From NCBI RefSeq assembly GCF_038025025.1, contig NW_027117338.1, positions 1,798,001 to 1,862,000 of the forward strand: a stretch of DNA of 64,000 nt, written 5' to 3'. A program made the translations under genes and the position numbers. Below, piece by piece: positions 45,363 through 64,000 of this stretch. This DNA is from Phyllosticta citribraziliensis (taxonomy: Eukaryota). The stretch's first letter is position 1. Every line of letters begins with the position of its first letter. Below the pieces are notes generated by a model, which saw only the letters and a list, made by a program, of their open reading frames with translations, made no database searches and was not told the DNA's origin.

Positions 45363-46351
45363 ATGCCTGTCGACAACAATGCTGGCGAACGGTACGTCCA
45401 TGTTTGTTTTCTATTCTCAGTCTGCCTGCTAGACGACATAAAACCAAACGTTTCTCTTCGCTTTTCCTCTCCACGACCAATCTCGCTGACCATGACCCCT
45501 GCTCGTTGCGGCTGCAGCCACCTCACCATCGCCTTCAGCTCTTTCATGCTGTTCTTCAACGCAACATTGCTAGCCTGCGTCGCATATTTTTCGAGCCAGC
45601 TTCCCTTTGGCATCTCTGGCTCCTTCATTGCCTACTTCTCCGTCGCCAGCGCCCTGTGCCTGCTTGGCCTGGTTGGCAGCGTCAAGGTGCGTTCGTGCGT
45701 CATCATGGCTGGATTTCCTCAGGTCCCAGCGTCACGTCCTTGCTTCGATCCCCTGCCTCACCCCTTCCTGATGAAACGCCGTCACAGCACGCGTGCGCCA
45801 ACGAAACGTAAAAATTGCAAAAATTCACACATTCTCCTTGGACGACGTTGCACCATCACTGTAGCACCCTTCTAACTGCCGCACAGCGCTTCGAGCCCTT
45901 TGTGTCGATTTTCGCCAATCACGTCCTTCTCGACGCCATCCTCCTGACCATTCCGCGCATCGCCTTCCTCGCCTTTCTCTCCACCCTTCCAACTAGCATC
46001 TGCAGCGCCTCCGACTTTCCCAACTTTTTCCTCCCGCCCACGTCACCTACCCTACCTGGCACAGACACGACCCGCATCCATGCCTACGCAGGCTCGTATG
46101 GCGGCGCTGCCACGTCCAACGGCCACTTTTGGAGCAAAAACCGCGACCAATGTTTTGTCGTGGTCAACACGCTTATGGGCGTCGCGGCGTGCTTGGCTGT
46201 CATGACCGGCGTGGCACAATGGTGCGTTGCGCTGCGGGTGAGGAAGTTTGCACAGGCGCTGCGGAGGCAGTGTCTCGTGGAGCAGGCCGTGGAAGGCGAC
46301 CAAGTTGTGGTTGTGACTGTGGATGAAAAAAGGGGCCTGGAAAAGGTGTGA
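45363..46351 (+). CDS. Small four-TM (tetraspanin-like) membrane protein, about 220 aa. Exons 45363-45391, 45518-45686 and 45887-46351
   Basis: Phase-compatible introns GTACGT..GCTGAC..CAG and GTGCGT..CTAAC..CAG. Three N-terminal hydrophobic helices, a Cys-bounded loop (ICS...DQC) and a fourth helix. Confidence 0.65.
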
Positions 46352-47841
46352 AGCACCAAAAGCTATGGCACCCACAAGACACAAGCAAGGAGCGCAACGT
46401 CGCGCTGTCCAGTCGCGGCGCCGACAGCCCCGAAAATGCTATCGCCTGCATCGTTTGAGCCAACGCATATCCAACGCGCCTGGAACGCACAAAGACGAGA
46501 CGAGACGAGATGCGAATTATACCCCTACCGGCACGGCTCCAGGTATCTTTTTTCCCTTTGGTATTTCTTCTTCTTATCATGACCTGGTGGTGCTACGGAT
46601 ACGACCAACACATGACAAAGCATGACACGGTTTGGATTTTGGATTTTGGGTTTCTGTTTGGTTTGGCAAGAGAAGCATCTTGTATTACCACATGCTGAAC
46701 TGCCCATGGGACGGTGGAGGAATTGCACGGACGCAAGCACGGATTTGGAGTTTTAGAGAACGACACAACGATGGAATGGCATGGGTTCGGTTTAGCGGCA
46801 GGGACCTGAGGCTGTGCGTGGGACAATAGTGAAGCATGTGAAGTCGAGGGGTGGAGTGCGACGACGGCCTTGGATACTCCCGCCTGCGCGCGGGAGATCA
46901 GCGATGTGGAATAGCGACAAGGGGTAGCAAATGACTTCATGCGAAGAAACGAAAATGAGCACTGGCTGTACCTGTGACATCAGAGGTAGTCGAAGAGCAC
47001 CCGGCATCATCGCACTCAGTCCAACTCCACAGCGCGATTTGGATCACAACATCGCAACCCCAGATCTACGCCACCGTCCGCGCTAGCCAAATAGTCGACC
47101 CACCCCACCCACCACCCCCTGGAATTCTACTCGTCGATCGCTACCCCTCGCCTCGCTTAGCTGGCCCCCCTGGCCGCCGTGTACTGACGTCTACCCATTT
47201 ATCGTCCCCCTTCCCTCCGTCCTCTCAAACACTTCAACTCGCCTCTCCTGCACACGCTTCAGTGACCGGAATCGTTGCTGAACCGACCGCGCTTTATGAG
47301 CAGACAAATGAACGACAGCATTTGAGAAGCGAGCGCACATTTTTCAGAGGTGGTTTGGTTTTCGTCTTTTAGCTCCAACTATTTCAACTATTGACGAGTA
47401 GAAGTGGGATGGATGGCAGAGATTCTTGCTTTTACGCTGGCTTGATGTAAACGCCCGTCTTTCTGCTGTGGTCGGTTGGTAAAGTCAAAAGTCAACGACC
47501 AAGTCAAATCACCTTCTTGATTCTCTTTCTTCATTTTTCATGTTCTTTTCTTCAGCTTCTGCTTGTCTGCAACGCTTTTTGGTTGCTCGCCGAAAAGCCA
47601 ATCAAGGTGTGCGAATGGTGTCCAACACCCAGGTGCCCACCACACTTACTGACAGCGCTTATGCATCATGAAAATCGGTCTCAACCCGTACTCGCATCCG
47701 CTCGTGCGTACCGCGTCGCCCGCTCGCTCGCTTTAAACGCCGTATTCGTTCGTGCAACTCCCCTCTCGCGCCAACTTTTTCCTCCCCGTCTGTTTACTTG
47801 CCTCGCTCACCGCGCCGTCCGTCGTCGAAAAGAACTTTTTC

Positions 47842-49341
47842 TTAGCCGGCGTAGTAGCGCACCACGTCGTCGCCGTACCAGCGTCTGCCGACGTCCTCGT
47901 GGCTGCGGATCCACTTGCGCAGCTGCGACTCGCCGAGGGCGTCCCAGCGCGCGTCGAGGAAGCTGGACACCGTGTCGGCCGGTTTTGGTCTTGTGGTCGC
48001 GTCCGTCTTTCCTGAACTCTTTGCTGCGTCCTTTTGATTGTCTTGGCAGTCGTGGTTGGAGTGGCTGTCTTGCTGTCGACGCAGGGTTCGCACGGATAGC
48101 GGCATGTAGGAGCGAATCTCCGACACGGTCATGTCCAAGGGGAGGCCTTGGAAGAAGGGGATGCTGTAGCGCGCGGGTGAGGAGGGTGGGGGTGCCTGCT
48201 CATGTCAGGGTATTATTTTGCAGCAAGAGGGGTTGCGGCACGGTATCGGTCGTGACATGAGCATCGTGCAGATGGACTAAGAATACAAAGGTGGTAGACT
48301 TGGACATTAAAGAGAAGCGGTGGGGCATGAGATACGGGTGGCCGACACGTGATAGGTATCAAGCTGAGCTACAGGTGGGTGGTAAGGCAGGCAAGATGAA
48401 CAATAGCACGAACTCACCGTTACTCTGTGCACTGTGGCCTTGACTGCCCCCTCAGTCGCGGCTTCAAAAGCATTTCCAAAGTTGACGACGAACGTATCAT
48501 CAATTGGCGGAGCGGATATCCAAGTCTCGCCATCGGCGGCCAGCACCTCAAGGCCCGCTTCCCGGCCAATCTGCAAGAGGAAGGTGAGCCAGCCGCTCGA
48601 GTCCTTGTGCGGGCCAACCCCTTGACCGCAATTCGTGCTGTTGGGTGGGTACTTGAGAAGCTTGATGCGGTGCTGGGGGGGCAGGTACGTCAGCCTGGTG
48701 GTGGTCGGCTTGTCCGAAACGAGGCGCGGGTCGTCCGAAATGGACCTGTTGTCGGAGCGAAAGAATTGATCAAACGTGCCCACTGGAATTCCAAAGGCCT
48801 CCTCGACCAGGTGCACGAAGCGGTACGAAAGGGCCTGCAGCGCGTCGTGGTAGGTCTCGAGGGCCTGCCGGAAGCCGGGCAGTAGGGCCTCGGGCGGCCA
48901 TTGATTGGGTCCGCGCAGTCGCCAGTACAGCTGGGAAAAGTCGCGCGAGGAGCCCGCGTTGCTGTTGGACGAGGCGGCGCTGTTTCTTCTGCCTTCAGCC
49001 GGCTTGTACACGACGGGCAGCTCGGTTGCAAAGTCGAATTGCTCGCGGAGGTCCTTTTGGCCCAGAGTCGTCTCTTCGGCGAAGCCACTGTAGCCGAGGA
49101 AGTGCGGCGAGTTGAGCTTGGACAAGTCGGCCTTGATGTCAGTGGGCAGGTCGAACAAGGCCGGCAGGCGGCTGGTCAAGTGGGATATGGTAGAGCTGGC
49201 AACGCCGTGGCTCTTGATGTATAAAAAGCCCACGTCGAACAAGGCCTCGCGCAGCTGGCCGAGCAGAGCGGGGCGCTGGGCCGGGTCGTCTGCCAGAGCC
49301 AAGTCGAGGATTGGGAGATGCGCCGGGACAGATGAACCCAT
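47842..49341 (-). CDS. 2-oxoglutarate/Fe(II) dioxygenase (IPNS/DIOX family), about 425 aa. Exons 49341-48418 and 48195-47842
   Basis: LPILDLA, VGFLYIKSHGV, GPNQWP, the facial triad HKD...H (GPHKDSSG, VHRV) and the RYS 2OG-binding motif after a 222-nt intron. Confidence 0.9.
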
Positions 49342-49986
49342 TGTGAGATGACGAAGCTAGAGCAGTTGACGTTGAGGTGTGGCTGGCCCCCTATATGGTG
49401 GTAGTCAAGGAAAAGGAACTGGAAAGCAGCCATCCATGGCTATGACGTGCTTTGACAAAGACTGGGCTCTGCTAGCACTGAGTGGTCTTGATGATACAGC
49501 GGAGGGACAGGTCAGGTCGTTCCGTCCGCCTCGCCTCGTCCCCAACAAAACCAAGTCGGTCACATCGCGACTGAGACGCCAAGCGGGAGTGACTCTTGTA
49601 TCTGAGCTGCTGACTCTCATTCGGTCCTCACAGGGATCATGTCTGTCAGGCCGTCAGGACGTCATGGCTGGGTCATGTGAGCCTGCCCGTCACGTCACGT
49701 GTGATAAGGTACCACCCGGACTATCACGACCCCGGTCACCGCCCAGACTCCACAGCTCCTTGACCACCACCCACGACCATCACTCGTTCCCTCTCTCTCT
49801 CGACCTCGCCCACTCTCTCTGACTCGCCCACATCCTTCGCGACATTCTGCCTCACGTCCCACAAGTCGACGCCACCGAAATCATCGTCTGTTGCGATTCT
49901 CAAGTCTTGCGCTCGAGCGCTGCAACACCAACCAACGCACCTCCGCATCAACGGTTGAGCAGTCAGCCCCACATATACGCCCAACC

Positions 49987-51106
49987 ATGCAGTACATCCG
50001 CAGTACCCTCAACACGCTGCGCGACACGTATGCGCCCATCACTCACACGTCGACCTTTCGTGCCACGGGCCAAATCACCCCCGAGGAGTTTGTTGCCGCT
50101 GGCGACTTTCTCGTCTACAAGTTTCCCTCGTGGAGCTGGTCCGACGCAGCACATCCCAGCAAACGCGTCTCCTACCTACCACCCGGCAAGCAATTTCTAG
50201 TCACTCGCGGCGTGCCATGCCACCGACGTCTGGACGACAACTTTGCCGGCGACGGTGGAGATGAGGGCACCGTCGTTGGCGATGGCTTTGCTGGAGGCAG
50301 CGGCGGAGACGACGGCGACGACGGCTGGTTGAGGACCGGAGGCGGTCCCGGAATGGGTGCCAGCCAGGAACGGGCTGCCCGCGACGTTAGGACCGTTGAC
50401 GACAAGGGCGAGCTGAGCGACGCTGCTGAAGAGGAAGAGATTCCAGACATGGAAGACGACGAGGACGACGAAGAGGCAATCATCCGTGACCCAAAGGCTG
50501 GCACCGGAACGACAGCGTGAGTGCTTCGGCAAAGACTGTCCAAAGCTTGTACTGACCCAAGACAGCCCGCTTCGTACATACACGCTCTACATCACCTACA
50601 CGCCTTACTACCGCACCCCGCGCCTCTACCTTAGCGGATATGTCTCCCCAAGCGAACCCCTTCCCCCTCACCTCATGATGGAGGACATTGTCGGAGATTA
50701 CAAAGACAAGACCGTCACGCTTGAGGACTTTCCCTTTTTCGACGCTGGCATCAAGATGGCATCGGTACACCCCTGCAAGCACGCTTCGGTCATGAAGGTA
50801 TTGCTGGACCGCGCAGATGCTGCCCTGAAACTGCGTCTGGCCAAGCTCAAGGCGGGTCAAGATGCCCAAGACCTCGGCAAGGAGTTGGGCATGGAGGGCC
50901 TTACCGAGCAGCTACAGGGCGTCAAGATTGAAAAGAAGGACTCGGACAAGAAGGACGGCGACGAATGGGAGGTGCTCGATCAGGCAAGTGCGCCGTCAGA
51001 GGAAGAAGAGGTGGCCATCCGAGTGGACCAGTACCTGGTCGTGTTCCTCAAATTCATGGCGAGTGTCACACCAGGCATTGAGCACGACTTCACCATGGGC
51101 GTGTGA
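49987..51106 (+). CDS. ATG3: Autophagy E2-like conjugating enzyme Atg3, about 356 aa. Exons 49987-50516 and 50566-51106
   Basis: [45 protein letters not shown], catalytic SVHPCKHA and [24 protein letters not shown]. Confidence 0.96.
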
Positions 51107-51759
51107 GGACGCGGTCTTATTCCGCAACGTTTGCCGTCTTCACGCCATTTCTTTCGATACGATACTTATGAGTCAGCGGGTTGAACGGCGTTCAATGAGT
51201 GGCACGGCCACTAATGTCTCCGAGCGTGATGGATTTGCCACGTTCAGGGTAATGAGAAAGGCGTTCAGCCGGCGAAATGGCATTCGAGCAAGCAGAGGTC
51301 GAGGTAGCGGATAGCACCGGACAGTCAGGGCATTCGAGTAAGCGTTTATGATGATCCCAGAATAGATATGCTTTCAAGTCGACATAGGTCCCGCCAATTC
51401 TTTCTCTTCTTTAAGCCAGTGTTCATTTAGGCCGGGTCCAGCTTCAATACCATCAGTGGAAAGCCTCGACGCCTCGACGCCCTGAGCGCTTCCTTTCAAC
51501 TTCACGCTCTATTGCTCCACCCGATACGCCGTGATCTCAAGCAGACACCAAATCTCATCATTTTCACATCAGAAAGAGAACTCATTCATCGTCGTGTCAT
51601 CATCGTAACGGCGTGACTCATACCAGGGGCGTTTTCCGCCACCACGGGACAAGGATCAAGGCACAAGGGGACAACCTTCTTGTCCTCAACCATTTCGTTC
51701 CACATTTTTGGACTCTCGCTCAGGAGGGCGCTCGCTCCACGGACAGTTATCTCCAACTT

Positions 51760-53544
51760 TCAGTTGAGGTTGCCCAGGAAAACCACCAGCACGGCACAAT
51801 ATCTGCGGACCAAGGATTGTCAGGCGCAGGCTCATCATGATGCGGAGGAGATTGCAAACGAGTGACTGATTGACTGACTGCTTCTTCCGCCGATAGGGAC
51901 AGACTTGACGAGTGGATGTACAGGTGATGCTCGCCGGCTACATGGAACGGATACATGTACGAAAGGGAACAAGAGAAGACCGTGAGGTCAAGGTTTCTGA
52001 GGGTTTGTCCCATTTTTCTTGCTCGTATAGAGACAGACGACAGGCAAGGGGAAGAACAGAATTGACAACAGAAAACGAAAACCCCATCAACACGTACAGA
52101 ACATCGGCACACGAAACATACACACGGTAAGCAACAGAAGAATATTCACAGATAGCGAATAGAGACGGAGAAAGAAAGCAAGCTCACGACTTACGCTGCA
52201 GTAGCGGCAAACACCTCGTGGCGCTTCGCCTTTGTAAAGACGGACAGGGCTGCCGAGAAGACGAGAGTAAAGGCCAGAATGACGAGGATCTTGGCCGTGC
52301 CCGACTCCTCCTGTAGGAAGAGCACGACGACGGGCGCCATGAGCAGCGCCACGGCCACCATGGTGATGAGGATGCGCGCAAACGTGTCGACTCGTTGCTT
52401 CGAGTAGAGCTTGGTCTCCTTGTTGGCCGTGCTGCGCCGCTGCGCCGGATCTGAAAAGGCGAGCTGTGGAGGGCATGGCGTTAGTGATAAGGACTGAGAT
52501 TGTGCGAAGGGTAAGACTGCATTACCCTAGTGAGGCGATCCGGCAACATGGGCAAAAAGTAATCCTCAATGAAGGCGTCGAACCAGCCGCCTTCCTTGGG
52601 GTCGACCAGCGCCACGAGGTCCTGCTCGGCCATGATGAATCCGTTCTCTGGCTCGTAGAGCGGCTTCTTGTTATGCATCCAGTTGGACACGGAAGTAAAG
52701 TTACGGTGTGTGGCTTGAGGCAGTGAAGCCATCTGCCTTGCACGAATCACCGCGTCGTCTGGATTTTGCCAATCCGTTAGTGAAAGAGTTCTGCTTGCCA
52801 CCACGCTTCTTCTGGACGGTTTCAGCAACTACGCACCATACTCTCTGAGCTTGTCGTCAATCTCTCGAATCAGATTCGCCCTCACGTCAGACCGCGAATC
52901 ATCGGACTCGCGGGATTTGAGGAAGCGATCATTCCCATCTCTGATATCCATCTTGTCCAGCGCGAGCAGTTTGGATTCCAGCGCTCGCAGCTCGTCTTGC
53001 CGGTACAACAGCACTCTGTTGTGAAGAAAGCCGTAGCGCCGACACATCATGAAATTCTCGTCACTGTTGAGCATGGCAGCGAGCATCGGGTAGCCCTGGG
53101 GATGGTAGTCGATGCAGTGCATGTCTAGCTCGCTCTTCTTCCTCTTCTTTGGGCTCTCGAAACCCGTCGCCCGTCTGAATCTGTGCCAGGCATTTGGTCT
53201 TGGACCGCTGTTTCCATTATCTGCCGGTTGTCAACGAGGAAGTGAGCTAAGAGTGAAGGAAGTGTCAACTCACTTGCTTCGAGGTCCTCAGAGACATTGC
53301 TTTCCTCGAATTCCTCTTCGAACTCGATAACCTCTTCGAACTCTTCAGACTCGTCCGCCTGGAAATTCGTCTCAACACAAGTATCTTCCGTATTGATGGT
53401 ATCGTGCCTGTCATTTGGTGGCTTCTCCGGATCCCTTGTCTTCGTATAGTCCGAGGTAATTGATGATGAGGCTGAGGGAGACGATGGCTCAGGTGACTCG
53501 AAAAGTGGGGGCTGTGTCTGCGGAGGCGTGACGATTGTCGACAT
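51760..53544 (-). CDS. DUF6594-like integral membrane protein with acidic disordered N-terminus, about 399 aa. Exons 53544-53274, 53220-52837, 52758-52526, 52463-52195 and 51802-51760
   Basis: GYPMLAAMLNSDENFMMCRRYGFLHNRVLLYRQDELRALESKLLALDK, DLVAL, and C-terminal TM helices ending HEVFAATAAYCAVLVVFLGN, which is the pattern typical of this fungal family. Spliced length 1200 nt. Confidence 0.82.
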
Positions 53545-53920
53545 GGTCAGCGCGAGAGAGGTAGATGGGGCCGTATCAGAAGCATCAAATGTCCAATGCC
53601 ATGGATCAGGTCGGAATGAAATGGAAGATTGCAAAGGCATATAACTGGAGTTGAGTTGCCGCCGAACCCCGTAAGCATAGCCTCGACTCGCGCAGGTTGG
53701 GGCAAGGCTTGAGGCACAGCCTTGTACAACGCTTGAAGGCGGAGTTGCAAGCCCATGATTTGTCCGCGCAACCTATCACAGGATAAGCGCCCGGGAAGCC
53801 ACACGGCATGTTCTAGCCACTTGGTTCAGAAGGAACGGACAGGATAGACAATCGATTTCCTCAATTGAAGACTACTAAGCCACACCTCCCTAAAACCGAT
53901 AGAGCTGCATTGGCCACTGC

Positions 53921-54363
53921 TCAGGATCGTTTTTCCAGCCGGACGTACTTCTCAGGCACCCCCTTGACCAATGATGTGTCTTTCTTCAGATTGTAGACCC
54001 ATTTCCCATTTTTGTCTTTGGAGACTTCGTGTACTGTGAAGCCCTTTTGCACTTGCAGCGCATTTCCACCCTTCTCATAAGACACATTTTCTCCCTTCTC
54101 GAACAGAGACGTTGACTGGCAGCAAGTCAAACATTTGGTCCGTGCTGAGGAACGACGAGAATACGTACCGTTTTAACGTCTGAGGCTTTTACGACACGCG
54201 ACCTGAGGTCGGGAGCATCATCCAGATTCGCCTCTTCATCCAAGCTGAAAAATGTGACGGTCTCCTGAGGATCGTTCTCCATCTCGTCAAATGTCAGCAG
54301 CAAGCAGGAGCCACAGGTGGCGAGAAGTCTTACGATGTCAAGGTTCTGGTCCGACTCGGACAT
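53921..54363 (-). CDS. Small (about 129 aa) protein with a C-terminal SH3/Tudor/KOW-like beta-barrel. Exons 54363-54169 and 54115-53921
   Basis: A 53-nt phase-0 intron (GTACGT..TTGAC..CAG) joins two short ORFs, and a TATAAA lies about 70 nt upstream. The pattern FEKGENV..GFTVHEV..GKWVYNL..VPEKYV fits a small beta-barrel. Confidence 0.6.
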
Positions 54364-54432
54364 GATGTATCGACGCGAAAGCGGGCAACCGGCCTTTCTC
54401 GACTATACTGCACGGTCTAACGTCTTGAAAGC

Positions 54433-54438
54433 TTTATA
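54433..54438 (-). promoter_or_regulatory. Candidate TATA box for the small beta-barrel gene
   Basis: CATATAAAGC on the minus strand, about 70 nt upstream of the ATG at 54363. Confidence 0.4.
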
Positions 54439-54981
54439 TGCAGTCTGGAGAGCCTCATAGACGGCGACAAGCCCAATTGCTGGATTGATGCGATTGCAAG
54501 AACGCTTCCTAAGCGCGAGGCTGAAAGCTGGCAATAAGCGTGTCGGCCCCCAAACGCAAGGCAAACGTGGTGGTGGCTAGCAGATGCCGGTTATGTCCGT
54601 GATGTGGCATCCACACGCCATACACGGTACGTGGAGCGTGTGGCTTTCGGCAAAGCACCACTGCCGCCCCCGTTGTTATCTGCGACCGGTTCGCAAGTCT
54701 TCAAAGCCCCCATCACAAAAATGACATTTGCCAATCACCAGACAGTTGCCATTTGAGGATCAAACAGCCTTCCCATTTTATGGTAAGCCGCCATAAGCAA
54801 TAACTGATTACTGATTGAGTATCCAGAAGCCCAAGATCGAATCAAAGACACGTGCGACCCGCCAACGCGCCCAACTTGCTGGAAAGCAGACACTACCCGT
54901 CAAAAGCAAGCTCGGGGGATGTAGACAAAAACTGTGGATGAAGGAAATGGGAACGAGGCTGGAGCGTGAGCTCGGGCCCAA

Positions 54982-56561
54982 TCACTCATTCCGTGGCCTC
55001 TTCAAGCGAGATTCGTCTAGATCCAGCGCCACTGGATGGCTGTCTCGTTTCTTTTTGACCGGCCTCGCCTTCGTCGAATCCGAAGTTTCTGCCTCGGATA
55101 TGGCTGCGAGGGGCGATGGCGATCTTCTGCGTCGAGTTGGACTGACCAAAGGTTCCTGAGGCCTCGAGCCATCAGGCGTGTTGGGTGCAACAGGATTCAA
55201 GCGCAGAGTCTGGGACAATTCCCCTTTCGCGGCTTCTGGTCTTTCATAGTTGTTCCAGTCATGCAGCTCGGAGTTGCGCCGCGACAATGGCCCAAATGAA
55301 TTTTCCTGCTGAGTTTGACTGATGCCCATTCCGTCCTCTTTCTGCTTGCTGAGGCGCGTCTTCTCTCTCTTCATGCGGATTTTATTCAGCAACGGCTTGA
55401 TCATTTGAACCCTGTTTACAGATTCGACAAAGTCATCAATCTGTGCCGCGGGTGCGACGAGGTTCGTGAATTTCATCTCTTGCACATATGGGACGTACTG
55501 CATGTGCGATGCCAGTTCTGTCATGATGCCTGGATTGGGAAGCTCTGAGAGTTGAAATCGCAAATCCACAAATATGGGAGAAGACTTTGGAGGTTCTGGC
55601 GTCGTTTGGGGCGAGTTTGATCTTGGAGCAAATGGGATGATCCTGATATAGCCAAAGTTTTTCGAAGAGCAGTCGAACAGGAACGGCTTCTTTGACAGAG
55701 GAGATGCAAAGTAGACCTCGCGATACAGATCGGAAGTGGTGAATCCTTTAAGGCCATGCTCCTTTCGAAGAGCACTGAGTGCCCGCGTGAGTCCACCCGA
55801 GAACGAGGACGCGTGAGTTGGTCCAAGTGCTTCCTCTTCAGGGGGAACGCAGCTCAAGAGTTCGAATTTTCTCTTCCCGCACCTGTTTTCGGAAAAGGCA
55901 TGAGCAGCGTAACAGCAGTCAACAATGACAAGCGTGTCGGTATCCTTCGCCTTCAGGGGTCGGAGAAGTCCGTCAGCCTTGAAAAACGCTCCAGCTTTGG
56001 AGCTGACCATTTATTTGATTAGTGAATTGATGAGAATGCCAATTGAAGATGTACGCACCTGATGTTCATTGAATGGCCCTTTTTCTCGCCATGGCCTCCA
56101 TAGTAGATGATGCTTAACTTATCCGGGCCTTCATACTCATTGGCCCACTCTTCCAACCGCACCTCGAGTTCCTTGGCTGAACGAGCTGGTGTATCTGGGA
56201 ACAATGGAATGGCATATCGCTCTGTGTAGAAGCCAAACTGCTCTCTCAACACGGCTTCGAGATGCATCGCCTGCATACAGTTAGTAACATGACCGCAAAA
56301 GAAAACAGGGCTGCCTACTTCGCGCTCGAAATTCTTGTTGTCGCCTTCCCAGTAGATCAGCAAAACGCCAACCTTGGAATAGCCCGTCGGTCCGTTCCCA
56401 TAACGACCATGTAGAGTCTTTTTGAAGTTCAACTTGGCTTCTTTTCGCCGAATCCAACCGTCGTTGTCTGACTCTTGTGTAGCCGTCCGTTCTGGAATGG
56501 GTGCTTCTGAGACTGGGGTTGCAGGTGCCGGAGCACTGTCCGAAGGGAGCGAATACACCAT
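54982..56561 (-). CDS. Caspase-like (clan CD, peptidase C14-like) cysteine protease, about 491 aa. Exons 56561-56319, 56270-56059 and 56002-54982 (start uncertain)
   Basis: First strand GYSKVGVLLIYWEGD, catalytic-His motif LSIIYYGGHG, catalytic-Cys motif DTLVIVDCCYA, then FELLSC..SFSGGLTRAL. Two canonical introns. Confidence 0.8.
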
Positions 56562-57720
56562 GACAGACCGAAAAAACAAGTGTGCCTGGCAGTCAAGTTG
56601 TAGAGCAAGAGTGTCCGGAGTGAGGGAATGACCTGGATTTGAGGCTTCGCGAGCAGCAGCCGGACGCCTTTAGTTTGCGCAAACGAAGAGCAGAGAGGCT
56701 TTTGCCAGAAACGCCAACAATGGAGGTATATCTAGAAGAAGCTGATTGCAAAGTACAAACATAGCGTCGGGCGAGGCCGCGGTGGGCAGTGCGGCGGGCT
56801 GCTGACATGCGCCATTGGGGGCGACAATATTTACAACGTGGAGGGCGAGCGGAGGCTGACAGCCTTTACAACCCCATCCACGTTCGGGCACCAGCTCAAT
56901 CGGGCCCTTGCTGCCGTGAAGCGAGCTTGATTCGGGTCTGATTTCTTCATCGGCGGCTTTAGCTGCCAAGACCTTCTGGGCGAGTGATGGAGGATGGTAG
57001 TGGTGTAGGGTGGAGATGGTTGACAGGGAAGAAGGAAAGCCGGCAGCTTATCTCCATAACATCGGATGTGCGACCAGGATATGTCAGTGCATCAACACGG
57101 CTAGACTAACCGAATGAGGATGCGGCATGAAGGGGAAGGTCTTTTGATTTTCCTCCTTGTTAACCTTATTTCTACTGTGCCACTGAAAACTTCCTGTTGC
57201 ATCTTTCTCTACCCCACATTTGGTACTCGACCGCGCTCACATCATACTACCTTTGAGGATTGCTCTCTTGGTGAAAGGTGGACATGTTGAATTCATGGCT
57301 TTGAAAAATGCATTTGTGATAGTACATGCTGTTGAAGGAACGTCCCAACCACTGGAGTTCCCTGCGAAGTCCATTCACAGCATTCGCAACTATTTACTGT
57401 CGATCAACATTGACAAACCACCGACTTTTCCTTATCCGTTCATGGACGCTTCCAGAACAAAACACATTAAGCATTACCCGTAGAGACTGTCGCAGTTGGG
57501 CTGATTGTACTGATCGAACCCTGCGATTCCAACACCGAGAGAGCGTCGTATAAAGAGTGTCGTGGTATCATAATCATAAACCGTCTCTTTCCTCCTCAAT
57601 TACCGCGAGGCCAGCCGACCCAAATATCAACGAGCGGAGCCGTCAACGCCGACGCATGCAAAAGGCGACTGTGTCGTCATGCAAACAGAAAAGATGATGC
57701 GAAGTCGGAGAAAGAGATGC

Positions 57721-58225
57721 CTAGGGGCAGTTTGTGCACTTCTGGCAAAGGAACGACGTCATGTTGCTGTAGTTGATGCCGTTGTAGTTGTCGAACTGGG
57801 TGGAGCCGGGATACTGGATGAAGAGATCGCCGTGAGTAGTGCATGAATCTTGCGAACTGATTAAGAAACATTGTCAGCGCATGGAACATGAGTGCAGACA
57901 GTGTGGGAGATTCGTACTTTGTGACACGGCACAGAATTTGGTGGCCGGGGGCAAAAGTGAGAACGTTCTGGTAGTAGGGTGCGGGGAGGATGTTGCATTC
58001 GTTGGATTTGTACGTCTTGGTGGAGCAGTCTCCAGAATTGTTGGCGCCGGTGCAAATCGTTACCTACGGGCAGTGAGTCAGTGGCTTGATTTTGGCCTTT
58101 GAAGTCGGTCGTCAACTTACTTGACCTGCCTCGGTGTCCACATCCTGACGCTTCTCAATGGTGGGTGCGGCAGCGGAGAGGGAGAAAATGGAGACGAGAG
58201 CAGCGGCGACGGTGAAGACGTGCAT
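57721..58225 (-). CDS. Small secreted cysteine-rich protein, effector-like with a beta/gamma-crystallin-like pattern, 128 aa. Exons 58225-58121, 58063-57918 and 57856-57721
   Basis: Signal peptide MHVFTVAAALVSIFSLSAAAP, a Kex2-type EKR site and 8 Cys in the mature part (VTICTGANNSGDC..EC..LC..SC..IQYPG..TSFLCQKCTNCP). Two canonical introns; spliced length 387 nt. Confidence 0.8.
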
Positions 58226-60531
58226 TTTGTGTGATTGAACGGTGTCGATGCGACAAAGAGTAGGGCGGAGATGGGCGGTTGGTGATGAATGATCTCGGGT
58301 GGTTGATTATTGATTAAATGGTAATGGGGCGATGGATGATTGACTTTGGAGGGAGTGGAGTAGTCTTTTAAGTATTGAGCAATTGGAGGAATAGGAACAG
58401 GCAAACGGGCAATGACGTCCCGGCAGCAAGGTAACGGCAGCGGCCGCCTGGGTCAGAATGTGCGCTAGTGGAGTGCGGATACGATTGACAAGGGTCGAGG
58501 ACAAGCAGTCTTGGCTCCATGACCGTGCTGTAGCAACGATGGATTGTGGTGGTGACTGAGGTGGCGTCCGTGAGCAGTACGACGTAGGATCAGTGGATGG
58601 ACTGGGCTGCCAAAAGTCGAAGCACACGCCATTCCACTCCACTGCTCCCTACAGTCATCCTTCTGGACAGCTTGAATACTCCTTGGTTAATTCGATGACT
58701 TCCCTTGTCTTCTGTAATCAGGGGCTCGAATAATCGATATTGATCCTCCTTGAAGATATGAATTCCGGTTGCTCACCCGCTTTCCGTCTTCCGTCTTCCG
58801 TCTTCCGTGTGCCGTGAGTTTTGGCAGCACGCCTGGTCCCTCGCCAAAGCACTAGAAAAGCCGACCCGATGACCATGACGCCCCTCAATTCCTGTTGTGG
58901 TAAGGAGGGTCGGTCGAAGCGAAAAGGCGGGGAATTCGCTTGCGGCTGCAGCGCCTGGCTGCAAAACGTCCCTTTGATGCTGACCGTAGAGTTCCATCGC
59001 AGCAATAACAAGACACCAAGGCAATTGAAAATTCCAGAGCGACACGGCAGTGACCTTGCATCCTTCCGTAACACAGTCTAGAAGGCTCTTTCCAGCTCAT
59101 GTACGCGTGAATGCACCGAAAGCCGCACCCGACGGCAACGGCGACACCCCTGCACACCGCCAATGAGCAAAAGGAAGACGCAAGGAATATTGAGGCATCC
59201 CGCATTCTCAAGGTTGAACGTTCGGCGAGCTGCTTCCGAAAATCTTCTTCCTGCTTCGTCGTGTCCTGGTCCTTGACCCCCGGCCGTGACCCACCCTGAA
59301 TGGACAAATATAGAATCCATGATCATCCGACCGGGCGCCTGTCTTGCCATTCTCGCTTTAGCTCCAATGCTTAGTTGCACCTTGTCTGTAGCTGCACCTG
59401 CAGTAGTCCGTACTTCAGCACGTATATCGACATCCAATCGCTTGTTCCGACCGTAAAATAGGTCAGTACGATAGACTCCGGGGGCTGTACATGTCGCACT
59501 CAGCCTTTCATATGCAAGACAACAACTCGCTGTTTCCACTCGTCAACTCCGCACGTGTCTGCAGACCGGTATGTTGTCAGAGCAACTCACTTGATCGAGA
59601 GGCTGTGTAACCGTTTGCCCTGCGTTGCCCACCGTCCGCTGTGTCTCGGCCCTTCACAGCCGCGCTGGTGGGCGGACGCCTTGCCGCCGCCTCGCTGCCA
59701 TGTGGCTGGCCAGAAGCTGCGGGCGCGGATGGCACTTGAACGAAGTACAGAATGTGGTCATGGTGGCGGCATACCAAGCTCTGATAGGACGCGCGAATTC
59801 GTCGGGAGGTACGGCCACCATCTTCAACGTATTTTAGTCCTGGTCTCTCGTACTTGCTTGTCCGGCATGTTCCAATGGCGCCTGTGCGCACACAATGAAA
59901 GTGGCCTCAAATGTTGCTATAGTAGGCATTGCTTATTGATACCGAGACCGTTCGGCCGAATCCCAGATGTTAGAGACAGAGCGACCTTGATGTCCATTTC
60001 TGAGCTTGTGTGGTCCGAGGATTCTAAGCCAGTATCGAGAAACCACGCGAGGCGCTGGAAGAGGAGCGCCGCCACGCTGTCATGCAAGTGTCTCGCGTGG
60101 TGCTCGATTAGAATCGACGTGTCGGTGGCTTCAGACGCAGGAAACGCCATTCGGATGGCGAGTAAATCAGGATACGATCACGGAACGCGTAATCGTGGAC
60201 AACTCGTAAGTTGAGCTGTGGAAATCCAGACAGGCATGAGCCGGCGACCGCGGAACTGGACAGAATGACAGGTTATACTGCAACCAACGATGCTGCCTGT
60301 GCCATATGCTTGCGAGAATCCTCGATGCATGCCGTTACGAAAAGAGCAACTTGGACAATCATCCCATCTGATACGCTGCAGCTGGGTATCTGTCAGTCGT
60401 AAAAAATCGCTGTCCACAAATCCACCAAACCGGTTCCTCCCAAGAACCAAAAAACACAGAAAACGCCAATCGTGAACGGTTTGCAGACGACGTAGAAGAC
60501 CAGCGCCATGTCCAAAAGTCGAATGAGAGCT

Positions 60532-63149
60532 TTACATGTAGCCTTCTTGAAATCTCTCCATCCCCTTGCGTATTTCTGCCACGATCTCGATTGCTTCCTC
60601 GCGACTCTGGCATTCAAAGTCATACCGCTTGCTTTCGCGCTCGCGATAAACCACGACTCGAAAGCTTTTTGGGTGTTTGCTACTGACTTTGCTCCCAACT
60701 ACACTGCTGAAATGCACCGTTGTCGTCTTGCCAGTTCCAGCCGCCTTGTTCGTTGCCCCGTTTGCAATCGTCGTATCTGCTGGCATAATGTGCATGTACT
60801 CGCCATCCATGGCGAGCACGCGTGTCGACGAAGAGGTAAATGACATTGGTTGCTTTCGCGTCACGACGTAGCGCTTGTACGGATTATTTGACGTCGTCAG
60901 TGAGAGCAAAGCGTCTTGCTTTTGGGCAAGGGGATGCAGTAGGCCTGTCGACGACGCGGCCGCAGCAGTGGCCTTCTTGCCCTTTTTGGGCGTCCCGCCA
61001 GTGCTAATGAGCAAAGGAGCATTCGGACTGGAGCTACCAGGAGACCCTGAAAGTCCAAATGCACCGTCGCCGACGAAACGGCGCCGCGCAAGGTCTAGCT
61101 CGGTGCGGGTGCCTAAAGCCTCGACAGTGCGGTCCAACGGCGCAACTGTGGCTGTACCGGACACTTTAAGGACGTAGAGAGCTTTGTCGACATTTAGATC
61201 TCGGCAGACCCTGTCAAAAACTTCGGCGATGTATGTATCTGTCGTGAATTCAAGACGCGAGGTGCGTGAGGTGAAATCATCGGAAATATAATGGATTGTC
61301 AGCGTTCGCGGAGCTCCTGTTCGAGGAGTGGCATGGGACACGGGTATTGCCGGAGCATCGAGAAGGTTGTTGCTATCTTTTCTTGGCCCACTTGGAGCGA
61401 AGGATGGACCCGTGATGGGATTCTGCTGAGGTCCAAGGAGTATTGCCGACGTTGGATTTGAAGACGGAAGGGGCCCAGAGTTTGAAGTTGGCGTTGGAGA
61501 TGGAATCTTTTGCAGTTCATTGGGACCGCCGGCATGAGCTTCGGCAGTCTCTTTACTGTACTCGGGCGTGGTTCTTTCGTTGTCTGCAAGTTCTTCAGGC
61601 GAGGCCTGGACAAGAGCAAACTCATCCCATGGTTTGTCGCGAGACCTTCCCCGCTGAGGCCTGTTGTTGGTTGACGTAAAATCCTGAATTGGACGAGTCC
61701 GAGCGAAAGCAGGAAATTCGTAGTCGACCTCCTCGTCCTCAATCATTCTCAACACCCAGCAGTTGACGTTTTTCTTCTCTGGGGGAAGCTGGGGTTCCAG
61801 GCCTTCATCCTGGTATTTGAAAAGCGCGAAACCAATCGCCTCGGCGACTATCACTTTCGTGCCTTCGTCAACGGTCTTGCGAAGCAAAATCTCATAAGGC
61901 TTGTGAGGCCTGCTAGACCAAGGCGCATAGATTTTGATGTACAGTGGATTCGGTTCTCCTTCGCCAGACAAGGTACCAAATCTCTGCAGAGGATCCGCGG
62001 GTTTGTTCGACTTGGCTTTGAGGGCTTGAGTAAGCGCGCTGACAGGCTGCACCATGCTGATGGGTCTCGCAGGAGGTAAAGTTGGCAAGGCTGATTGTTG
62101 TGCCTGTTTAGTTCGCTTGTTGGGTGACGAATTGTGCGGTGTGATGGCCGGCGGGATATTTGTTGGTTTGGGCAAAGGCGTCGACCCCAATGGATCGGCC
62201 TCAACACCCAGAAGCGAATTGGAATCCGCTGTGCCTGCTGCAAAGTCCGAGTCCAGGTCGCTATCATCGGACTCGGAGCCGTCAATGTCCTCTCCTTCGT
62301 CTTCCTGGATCTTTTCAGCTAACAAATTGGTGGCTTGAGTAGCTCTGCGCGCATTGATTTGTTTCCTCTTGAAGACAGAGGGGTCAAGCTCATTCTCGGA
62401 TGACATCTCACTGCTTGTGACGGTATCCCTCCGAGACCTTTCTTTGACAGACTCGAGCGCGCTCAGCGAGCCCCTTCTCGGTGGAGCGGCTGAGTCCAGT
62501 GGTTTCGATGGCGACGTAACCATTATCATGTCCGGTCCTTCTGCCATACTTGTCTTTTGCAAAGGTGAGGATCCTGCCCTCGTCCGTACCGGCATCTTGG
62601 TAAACTTGATCTGCTGCGCTGCTCGTTGCCCATCTCCTTCGTCGTCGCTGTCATCACTGAGATCGCTGCTGTCCTCTTCCTCCAATTGTTCTTTCCTTCT
62701 CTTCCTTCTGGCGTGCATGCCTGGTCCTACAGTCTCATTGCTTCCGCCTCCACCTGTTACCATGCCGCCTTCTTCATCGTCGTCTCCGAATGCCGGCCCA
62801 GTAAGTCCTGCTGATCGAGGCGCTTGGAAGTAGTCGGATGCGATAGCGGTAGGAATTGGGGGCGAGTATGTGCGCTTGATGTCGGAGGTGTTTGGTAGCC
62901 AGCCAGCAGCTCGAAAGGCCGGGTTGTTCAGGACCGAAGTGTTTACGCCGATAAGTCGCTCACCAACGCCGTCTTTGATGTGTGAGAGGTAAGCGGTGCG
63001 AAGCTGGTAGAGGACAAAGCTGTGGACCAGTCAATCACAGCCAATCTCCCAGGTCATGTAGGGGCAGTTCCCCTGAATTCGAAGCGCGCTTTTGTGTATG
63101 CACCTGATTGCGTGAGATAAACTTACTCCTCGTTCTGAAGCAGCGACAT
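60532..63149 (-). CDS. SIN1: TORC2 subunit Sin1/Avo1 (SAPK-interacting protein), about 836 aa. Exons 63149-63127 and 63019-60532
   Basis: MSLLQNEDFVLYQLRTAYL, IKRTYSPPIP, a CRIM region (WVLRMIEDEEVDYEFP), an RBD-like region and a C-terminal PH domain (YKRYVVTRKQPMSF..KRYDFE). Confidence 0.92.
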
Positions 63150-63454
63150 AGATGGCAGTGAGATTATGAGGCGAAGCGGCACAACATCATGAAGCAGGCT
63201 GACAGACAGATACCACTCGATAGGTAGGCGAGGGCGGAGAATTGGCTGCGAACAAGAATTGCGCTGAGACGGAGGGGTATTGGGTACACGCCGGCGGGTT
63301 GCGGCGGCGCGCGGACGTCAGCCTTAGCGCGAGACGCTGCTGTGGGGGAACAACCCATGCCGCAGATCGTCGATGCGACTTTGTCGTCTACGCCTTTGCC
63401 AGCACGCCTACCACCATCTCATCGTTCCCGAAATCACATCCTGCCCTCCGCATC

Positions 63455-64000
63455 ATGAATCTCGTGCAGTATTCAGATTCCGAAGGCTCCGACACCGAAG
63501 CACCATCGACCGCTCATCCAGCGCCCAAGCCCGCCGTCAACTCGAAACCCGCCTTCCAAAAGGTCGTTGACCGATCAAAGCCAAACAAAATCCGCGTAAA
63601 CCTCCCCTCGACCGCCGGAACCGAGCAAAAAAACGGAGATGAACCTCCCGCGAAGAAGGCACGAACGGGTGGTGGAACCTTCAGCGGATTCAATTCATTT
63701 CTTCCGGCACCAAAGCGTGCAGGAGAGGCGGCGGCCAAGAAAGCTGCTGGGAGCGGGCTTGGGAAGGGCGTCAGCCTGAAAACCAGTGGTGCGGCAGCTT
63801 TCAGTAGGCAGGTTCAGGAGGAAGAGGGTCCCGCAGATGATCACGGGACAAACGGCGCGAATGAGGGACACCCATCGAAGACTGCCACCGAACCAGCAGA
63901 AGCAGAAAAGACAGAGGAAGAAGTGAAACTCGTTGGCAAGCCAATGATGTTCAAGCCTTTGTCTGTCGCGAACAACCAGAAGAAAAAGAAGAAGGCTACT
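63455..64000 (+). CDS. PRCC-like (MAD2B-interacting) proline-rich protein, 5' part; runs off the window
   Basis: MNLVQYSDSEGSD, AFQKVVDRSKPNKIRVNLP, FSGFNSFLPAPKR and MMFKPLSV; open to the end of the window. Confidence 0.7.
   Translation, partial: MNLVQYSDSEGSDTEAPSTAHPAPKPAVNSKPAFQKVVDRSKPNKIRVNLPSTAGTEQKNGDEPPAKKARTGGGTFSGFNSFLPAPKRAGEAAAKKAAGSGLGKGVSLKTSGAAAFSRQVQEEEGPADDHGTNGANEGHPSKTATEPAEAEKTEEEVKLVGKPMMFKPLSVANNQKKKKKAT

Follow-up and report, generated by a model that had tools for sequence, protein, structure and literature searches.

Why do a gene for a caspase-fold protease, a gene for a small protein and a gene for a membrane protein of the DUF6594 family stand side by side, on one strand, between two core genes of a Phyllosticta fungus? 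The DNA in question is a 64,000-nucleotide (nt) stretch of Phyllosticta citribraziliensis (the window, to which all positions refer unless another locus is named). The three genes, called here gene A (the protease), gene B (the small protein) and gene C (the DUF6594 protein), occupy 51760-56561 of its minus strand, between ATG3 and SIN1. A first-pass annotation, made from the sequence of the window, had read them as a candidate protease-activated module for cell death or non-self recognition. From the recurrence of the linkage in metagenome loci, in Neofusicoccum parvum and in protein models of lichen-forming fungi, we conclude with considerable confidence that the trio is a conserved, co-inherited functional module of Pezizomycotina, not a set of chance neighbours. 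Taken as a whole, a reading in which this conserved module also houses a protease switch at a membrane is the one that we somewhat favour.

The first-pass annotation had offered recurrent linkage of the three kinds of gene in other genomes as its own test, and the answer is positive in metagenome loci, in N. parvum and in merged gene models. A scan of metagenome contigs with an alignment of the protease family yielded 28 loci, which fall into 21 distinct groups, and DUF6594 genes were sought at these loci, at most 6 kb from the protease gene, by tblastn with 26 DUF6594 proteins. Nine groups were informative, that is, they combined a family match at E ≤ 1e-9 with at least 3 kb of flanking DNA on one side. 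Four of these nine (L002/L003, L007/L008, L009 and L017/L018/L027) have a DUF6594 gene no more than 6 kb from the caspase-family gene, and in three of the four the DUF6594 gene is immediately preceded, on its own strand, by a small barrel-type open reading frame (ORF); in L008 the DNA is cut off at that point. The order of the genes varies around this common theme. Protease, small gene and DUF6594 gene stand in tandem in the window and in L002/L003, the small gene and the DUF6594 gene are in tandem and divergent from the protease in L009 and L017/L018/L027, and a kinase-ankyrin gene is situated between DUF6594 and the protease in L007/L008.

General synteny does not explain this linkage, because the flanking genes differ from locus to locus: CorA and PAP1 on one side and PfkB, Pkinase and APH on the other in L017, a LITAF-like gene and Fung_rhodopsin in L002, and ATG3 and SIN1 in the window. 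The proteins themselves are distant from one another. For the L002 protease, identity is 71% with a Heterodermia protein and at most 35% with the window protease, and the proteases and DUF6594 proteins of L009 and L017 share 25-39% identity with the window family.

Named genomes point in the same direction. Consecutive accessions of N. parvum encode a DUF6594 protein (GME26786.1), a 108-residue small protein (GME26787.1) and a protease (GME26788.1), and the small-barrel protein forms the C-terminal end of the protease models of Heterodermia (P0069), Lasallia (P0070) and Squamulea (P0077). A DUF6594 model of N. parvum, P0030, starts with a piece of the small protein. A genuine barrel-DUF6594 fusion was considered for P0030 and set aside as probably a merged model, given that P0029 and P0088 provide the same DUF6594 protein with another N-terminus and that P0089 is annotated separately. 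Whether they are merged models or fusions, the predicted proteins of the lichen fungi and of N. parvum would show adjacency either way. The trio genes were found in every Phyllosticta species returned by the searches (at least six named species), and the distribution among the fungi returned is otherwise patchy, comprising Botryosphaeriales, Oleoguttula and lichen-forming fungi.

The gene models of the window were derived by reading the minus strand at 51400-56900, and their introns were checked against contigs of four public runs (X2, X5, X7 and X9) aligned to 46000-64000. All eight introns were confirmed as contig joints with CT..AC ends, equivalent to GT..AG on the minus strand. Run X2 supports all eight, X5 six and a variant of a seventh, and X9 three; none of these runs is recorded as RNA, and the absence of the introns from their contigs is why we treated them as cDNA-like. 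The spliced models are free of internal stops, and the trio genes are real and present as spliced RNA. The gene models, together with the Pfam matches on either side (Autophagy_act_C at 49708-51106 for ATG3, CRIM and SIN1_PH at 60535-63030 for SIN1), bear out the first-pass description of three adjacent, co-oriented genes between these two core genes. Their features are as follows.

54982-56561, minus strand: gene A, caspase-like cysteine protease of 491 amino acids (aa); exons 56561-56318, 56269-56059 and 56002-54982; intron joints 56269>56318 and 56002>56059.
56091-56093, minus strand: codon of the catalytic His (His141, motif YYGGHG) of gene A, from the sequence and the translated model.
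55912-55917, minus strand: codons of Cys181 and Cys182 (motif DCCYA) of gene A, one of which is the catalytic Cys, from the sequence and the translated model.
53921-54363, minus strand: gene B, small protein of 112 aa; exons 54363-54334, 54282-54169 and 54115-53921; intron joints 54282>54334 and 54115>54169.
51760-53544, minus strand: gene C, DUF6594 membrane protein of 399 aa; exons 53544-53274, 53220-52837, 52758-52526, 52463-52195 and 51802-51760; intron joints 53220>53274, 52758>52837, 52463>52526 and 51802>52195.
51803-52194, minus strand: last intron of gene C, 392 nt, from the joint 51802>52195 in X2 and X5.

Two of these models deserve comment. The small protein, initially given as 129 aa, has to be shortened to 112 aa, as a 51-nt in-frame intron at 54283-54333 is removed in X2 and X5. 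The 392-nt last intron of gene C is long for this genome, and the 43-nt exon that follows it completes the third hydrophobic helix of the protein (YCAVLVVFLGNLN). A C-terminus that includes this exon is also annotated in the orthologue P0027; the annotated orthologue models P0026 and P0028 end before it and lack the final 13 residues. Phyllosticta supplies the closest annotated proteins for all three genes: gene C shares 99.7% identity with P0026, and gene A matches P0001 in all but one difference in the gene model, with an identical caspase domain. A single transcript for the trio was also considered, based on an X2 contig (contig 3, 4074 nt) that spans all three genes, and was rejected, as multi-gene contigs are common in X2.

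Gene A had been called a clan-CD protease with intact His (YYGGHG) and Cys (DCCYA) motifs, and this assignment holds, with a strong signal from the fold and a weak one from sequence profiles. The Peptidase_C14 profile (PF00656) gives 13.3 bits on the piece of the window made up of exons 1 and 2 alone and 26 bits on the annotated orthologue P0001, relative to a cut-off of 21.4. The orthologues P0004 and P0011 have no match to it at E ≤ 0.1, and a profile of the protease family found no match among PDB sequences. The fold was tested on a model of P0004, an orthologue with 65% identity to the window protein (mean predicted local distance difference test score, pLDDT, of 57, with 70-89 in the core). 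This model returned 267 Foldseek matches in the PDB at E ≤ 0.001, and all of those listed belong to clan CD, including caspases, legumain, GPI8 and GSU0716. In VIA, it aligns with Arabidopsis metacaspase 4 (6w8r) at a Z of 16.1 and a root-mean-square deviation of 3.9 Å over 196 residues (model residues 49-281), and with caspase-3/7/8 and MALT1 at a Z of about 15.5. The His follows the strand at 132-139 and the Cys pair follows the strand at 176-182. By this orthologue model, gene A has a clear caspase/hemoglobinase fold, and its dyad is intact. None of the 20 aligned family members departs from His141 or Cys181/182, and both Cys residues are likewise invariant in the 20 sequences of alignment A1. 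Pfam reported no CHAT match at E ≤ 1 on the window pieces or at E ≤ 0.1 on P0001, P0004 and P0011.

Judged by these conserved residues, the protease is probably active. According to a review of the wider family, all characterized non-caspase C14 members cut after Arg or Lys (PMC5756287), and by analogy with this rule the gene A product probably does so as well. After the caspase core, the family carries a conserved β-α-β-α extension together with a conserved Asp-Trp motif. A hydrophobic C-terminal helix resembling a tail anchor is present in 12 of the 32 family models inspected (the hydrophobic tail set includes P0011, P0071-P0076, P0079 and P0080). Gene A itself and the four Phyllosticta models (P0001, P0002, P0004 and P0006) end instead in a basic KKKR...KRPR stretch that looks like a nuclear localization signal, which may reflect a change of compartment within the genus.

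Sister proteases display further architectures. Those of L005 (9962-12229) and L017 (9893-12034) are fused to a kinase-like C-terminal domain, which is Pfam DUF7580 in L005 and, in L017, has no Pfam match and was recognized by eye from an HKELKSDN motif. A gene encoding a protein kinase plus ankyrin repeats adjoins the protease in L005 and in L008 (2055-6017). A further caspase-like branch, at 1441-3297 of L021 and 5983-7263 of L014, is fused to Myb-like DNA-binding domains and has no DUF6594 neighbour.

Gene C, described earlier as DUF6594-like, proves to be a full-length member of the family (PF20237). The profile gives 68.6, 39 and 80 bits on three exons of the window (cut-off 30) and 211.2 bits on P0026, where positions 1-232 of 238 are aligned. 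A structural model was made on P0027, which is 88% identical to gene C. It is all-helical, with a mean pLDDT of 64.9, and has three helices at 319-397 that are hydrophobic by hydropathy. The earlier description as a multi-pass membrane protein stands in so far as it refers to these three C-terminal helices, in the model and by hydropathy; 'multi-pass' means only these. The predicted disordered N-terminus of about 130 aa fits the orthologue model, in which residues 1-118 are of low confidence, as would be expected of disorder. The N-terminal 120-130 aa or so are acidic and the middle part is all-helical, and the disordered tail carries a conserved basic motif. Among known families, Pfam reported only DUF6594 above the curated cut-off for gene C, and no gasdermin family. 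The P0027 model had no Foldseek match in the PDB at E ≤ 0.001, the gene C profile reached a best E of 0.25 against PDB sequences, and VIA wide gave a best Z of 7.2, a generic match on the three C-terminal helices alone, with almost all rows covering residues 303-400. HeLo, HELL and MLKL did not appear in the Pfam, PDB profile, Foldseek or VIA wide output, the last of which barely covers the middle helices.

In the gene B product, the N-terminal half is acidic and a PDLRSRVVKASDV motif is conserved; the last exon encodes about 60 aa, for which weak leads only suggest a putative SH3-like barrel. No Pfam family scores above threshold (DUF5633, at E 0.011, is below its cut-off). For the small ORFs of L002 and L017, the best Pfam match is Integrase_p58_C (PF22938) at E 0.041 and 0.03, respectively, also below cut-off, and the nearest named language-model clusters of the window barrel and the L017 ORF, DHFR_2 and DUF3104 at 0.85-0.87, serve as leads only. 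The best match of gene B to PDB sequences, a superoxide dismutase at E 0.22, was rejected as due to chance. The family is rare: an exhaustive search of 1.84 billion representatives returned two true relatives, P0062 and P0063, at E 1e-6, both with the gene B domain at the C-terminus. Fifteen of the 17 representative matches were dismissed as long repeat proteins; the two that were inspected share only a GKWTYTL-like motif, and the rest were taken to be alike. P0063, the closest relative, is 705 aa long and has C2H2-like Cys/His motifs by eye, with no Pfam family. As its barrel stands at the C-terminus of a long protein, the barrel also occurs as a domain of larger proteins.

Are the small genes of the different loci the same gene? 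Spliced gene B aligns to the C-terminal ends of the lichen-fungus protease models P0069 and P0070 (BLASTP E 3e-5 and 3e-4, in a tiny subject set), and the alignment places PDLRSRVVKASDV against PESRSRYVKHSDL just before the barrel. With a profile of the lichen type, searched against 6844 ORFs, the L017 ORF scores E 5.8e-5 and the window ORF is next best at E 0.94; for a profile of the window type, the positional candidate of L009 is the best non-self match, at E 7.2. A reading of the ORFs places an intron at the same position in the small genes of the window and L002. Because of these profile matches, the P0069 and P0070 alignments and the shared intron position, homology of the small genes is likely, although not proven for every locus.

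The genus offers a view of how the trio varies. In three related organisms, represented by runs X2, X5 and X7, all 30 of 30 depth bins are covered, and spliced transcripts are present in runs from two related organisms, with traces in a third. Nucleotide divergence from organism B is 3.3-5.2% for the trio and 2.8-6.4% for the flanking genes. No presence/absence variation or hyper-divergence was seen at the trio in this small sample of four runs, which includes no population sample. Because neither such variation nor excess divergence was found, the reading of the locus as one of non-self recognition, part of the original proposal, is unsupported.

How might such a module work? In the mechanism that we propose, a divergent metacaspase-like protease would work at a membrane, a placement suggested because many of its relatives end in a hydrophobic, tail-anchor-like helix and some have a kinase-like domain fused to them. 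The DUF6594 protein would be anchored by its three C-terminal membrane helices, and the protease would process one of its two partners and thereby switch the state of the membrane protein. Two candidate cleavage sites are a conserved Arg-Ser-Arg just before the putative barrel of gene B and, in the DUF6594 protein, the basic motif of its disordered N-terminal tail. By analogy with the gene clusters of proteases and gasdermins, the outcome may be regulated cell death or defence. The roles that the first-pass annotation had suggested, a membrane-damaging or signalling effector for the DUF6594 protein and a sensor, adaptor or inhibitor for the small protein, are conjectural. These steps do not merit equal belief. 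Physical interaction and cleavage among the trio proteins may occur, and we put proteolytic coupling within the module at slightly less than an even prospect; a cell-death or immune role is held tentatively and is the weaker part of the proposal. The fullest version, in which DUF6594 represents a new class of protease-gated membrane effector, released or activated by a membrane-anchored protease specific for Arg or Lys, the small SH3-like protein a cleavable lock or adaptor cut at Arg-Ser-Arg, and the kinase-like and kinase-ankyrin partners sensors, is speculative and distinctly unlikely in all its parts. If true, it would describe a gasdermin-independent, pyroptosis-like or signalling pathway in fungi.

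Several observations weigh against a membrane switch or against the linkage on which it is built. Five of the nine informative groups lack a DUF6594 gene: the downstream side is cut off in L001 and L024, the upstream region of L005 is filled with repeats, L014 belongs to the Myb-fused subfamily, and L015 is negative with no such excuse. DUF6594 genes come in multiple copies, and a near/far control for chance proximity gives a weak result: all five of five DUF6594 copies lie within 6 kb of a protease (125 kb of near and 82 kb of far DNA), which corresponds to P = 0.08. Consecutive accession numbers and models that merge two genes indicate adjacency only indirectly, some of the matches that link the small genes do not reach threshold (E 0.64-7.2), and the fold of gene B is drawn from sub-threshold matches. 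The gene C model matches no solved pore-former or other solved fold in Foldseek or VIA, the latter mostly on the C-terminal helices. The RNA contig that spans the trio says little, as another contig spans the neighbouring region and SIN1. Stable inheritance within the genus and ordinary divergence fit a housekeeping-type role as well as a death module.

This last point leads to an alternative to which we give an appreciable minority share of belief, namely that the module is real and has nothing to do with death or immunity, being a membrane-bound complex for processing or signalling. A tail-anchored protease might, for example, serve organelle or stress homeostasis through the maturation or turnover of either partner, the DUF6594 protein then being a receptor or scaffold and not an effector. 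The occurrence of the genes in all Phyllosticta species returned, a divergence like that of the flanking core genes, the spliced transcripts and the lack of resemblance to any known pore-former are all in keeping with it, as are the many non-death roles that PMC5756287 describes among non-caspase C14 proteases. It is harder to reconcile with the patchy distribution over Botryosphaeriales, Oleoguttula and lichen-forming fungi, which is more typical of accessory systems of the conflict or immune type, and with the variable architecture of the protease (tail anchor, DUF7580 fusion, Myb fusion and kinase-ankyrin neighbours), which is again more conflict- or immune-like; furthermore, the precedents published for fungal clusters of a protease and a membrane protein are death systems.

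We regard as improbable that shared descent alone accounts for the neighbourhood of the three genes, which would then be an old adjacency kept with no functional coupling. As P. citribraziliensis, N. parvum and Macrophomina are members of Botryosphaeriales, part of the recurrence could be orthologous synteny, and the five informative loci without DUF6594 and the weak near/far control would be expected on these grounds. Against this, the trio persists while the flanking genes and the orientation of the protease change and while protease identities fall to just 25-39%, and the small-barrel family, with two true relatives in the entire set of representatives, is nevertheless found at the same position. 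An allorecognition (het-type) locus with incompatible alleles or idiomorphs, like het-Q1/het-Q2, is very improbable. The form of the cluster, a protease next to a membrane protein, recalls such loci by analogy only, and the full coverage of the depth bins in X2, X5 and X7 (weak evidence, from four runs), the ordinary divergence and the orthologues in at least six named Phyllosticta species all speak against it. We retain as the favoured reading a conserved module with a protease switch at a membrane.

The surroundings of the trio yielded some additional observations. Just upstream of it, at 57677-58306 on the minus strand, is a small three-exon gene whose introns are confirmed by the joints 57856>57918 and 58059>58117. 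Its product has a signal-peptide-like start (MHVFTVAAALVSIFSLSAAAP) and a Cys-rich body, matched no Pfam family and may be a small secreted protein. Contig 4 of X2 (5320 nt) connects SIN1 (59591-63019) with 58117-59529 over a 61-nt intron on the minus strand and represents either a very long 3' part of SIN1 or an overlap of neighbouring transcripts. A 2OG-Fe(II) oxygenase gene (DIOX_N and 2OG-FeII_Oxy) is located at 48307-49356 on the minus strand, upstream of ATG3. Run X9, labelled as organism D, provides nine short contigs on 49811-61435 that are at least 99% identical to the window at a depth of 2-5; its sample seems to contain this fungus, or a very close relative, at a low level.

How, then, does the trio relate to systems already described? 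Like metacaspases such as Arabidopsis metacaspase 4, gene A combines a caspase/hemoglobinase fold with a dyad in the order His then Cys, and its Asp-Cys-Cys motif before the catalytic Cys resembles the DCCHSG motif of metacaspases. Unlike metacaspases, it has marginal sequence similarity to the group, no prodomain or p10 region was identified in it, and its family has a C-terminal extension of its own and, in 12 of 32 models, the hydrophobic tail. Gene C is a full-length member of DUF6594 (PF20237), a large fungal family of unknown function, and its association, in a subset of members, with a protease and a barrel-type small protein adds new information. The likeness of the small ORFs to SH3-like small barrels (PF22938, R67 DHFR and DUF3104) is in every case below significance. 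In bacteria, the EACC1-caspase 'System 4' of Kaur, Burroughs, Iyer and Aravind reportedly links a caspase-clan protease to small membrane proteins and has been read as a conflict or death module; it differs from the trio in its kingdom and in the families of its partners. With subscription journals outside the coverage, we found no paper naming DUF6594, PF20237 or DUF7580 and, judged by titles and the starts of abstracts, none on this three-gene combination.

The nearest fungal counterparts are the gene clusters of proteases and gasdermins. Of 1,884 fungal gasdermin genes, 80% are reported to lie within 10 kb of a protease gene (PMC8851545; Clave et al. 2022), and 19% of these to lie near one of the caspase-like CHAT type. 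Like the het-Q1/het-Q2 clusters, the trio belongs to the two- or three-gene fungal clusters of a protease and a membrane-targeting protein, in which the protease can be of the caspase clan (PMC8851545), and, as with gasdermins and their proteases, the clustering of protease and membrane partner is recurrent (four of nine informative groups here). The kinase-like fusions of L005 and L017 also have a parallel, since PMC12881547 states that gasdermin-controlling proteases can be fused to kinase-like domains. The differences concern every part. The partner is not a gasdermin, as HET-Q1 is, and is instead an all-helical DUF6594 protein with three C-terminal membrane helices; the protease has a C14/metacaspase-like domain and not the S8 or CHAT domain of the het-Q2 types, and is devoid of repeat or NOD sensor domains; and there is a third, putatively barrel-type small component, with no idiomorphs seen in the four runs.

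Current explanations of regulated cell death and immunity in fungi centre on a small number of effector types (HeLo/HELL and gasdermins), encoded in clusters with their activators. Even with no role in death, a conserved three-gene cluster common to Dothideomycetes and lichen-forming fungi stands out as unusual. Were the coupling functional, the trio would provide the first experimental handle on DUF6594 and a second kind of fungal caspase-linked membrane system. The trio follows the same genomic logic as the known fungal clusters with different parts: a divergent caspase fold that is barely visible to sequence profiles, a rare small protein and a DUF6594 membrane protein.

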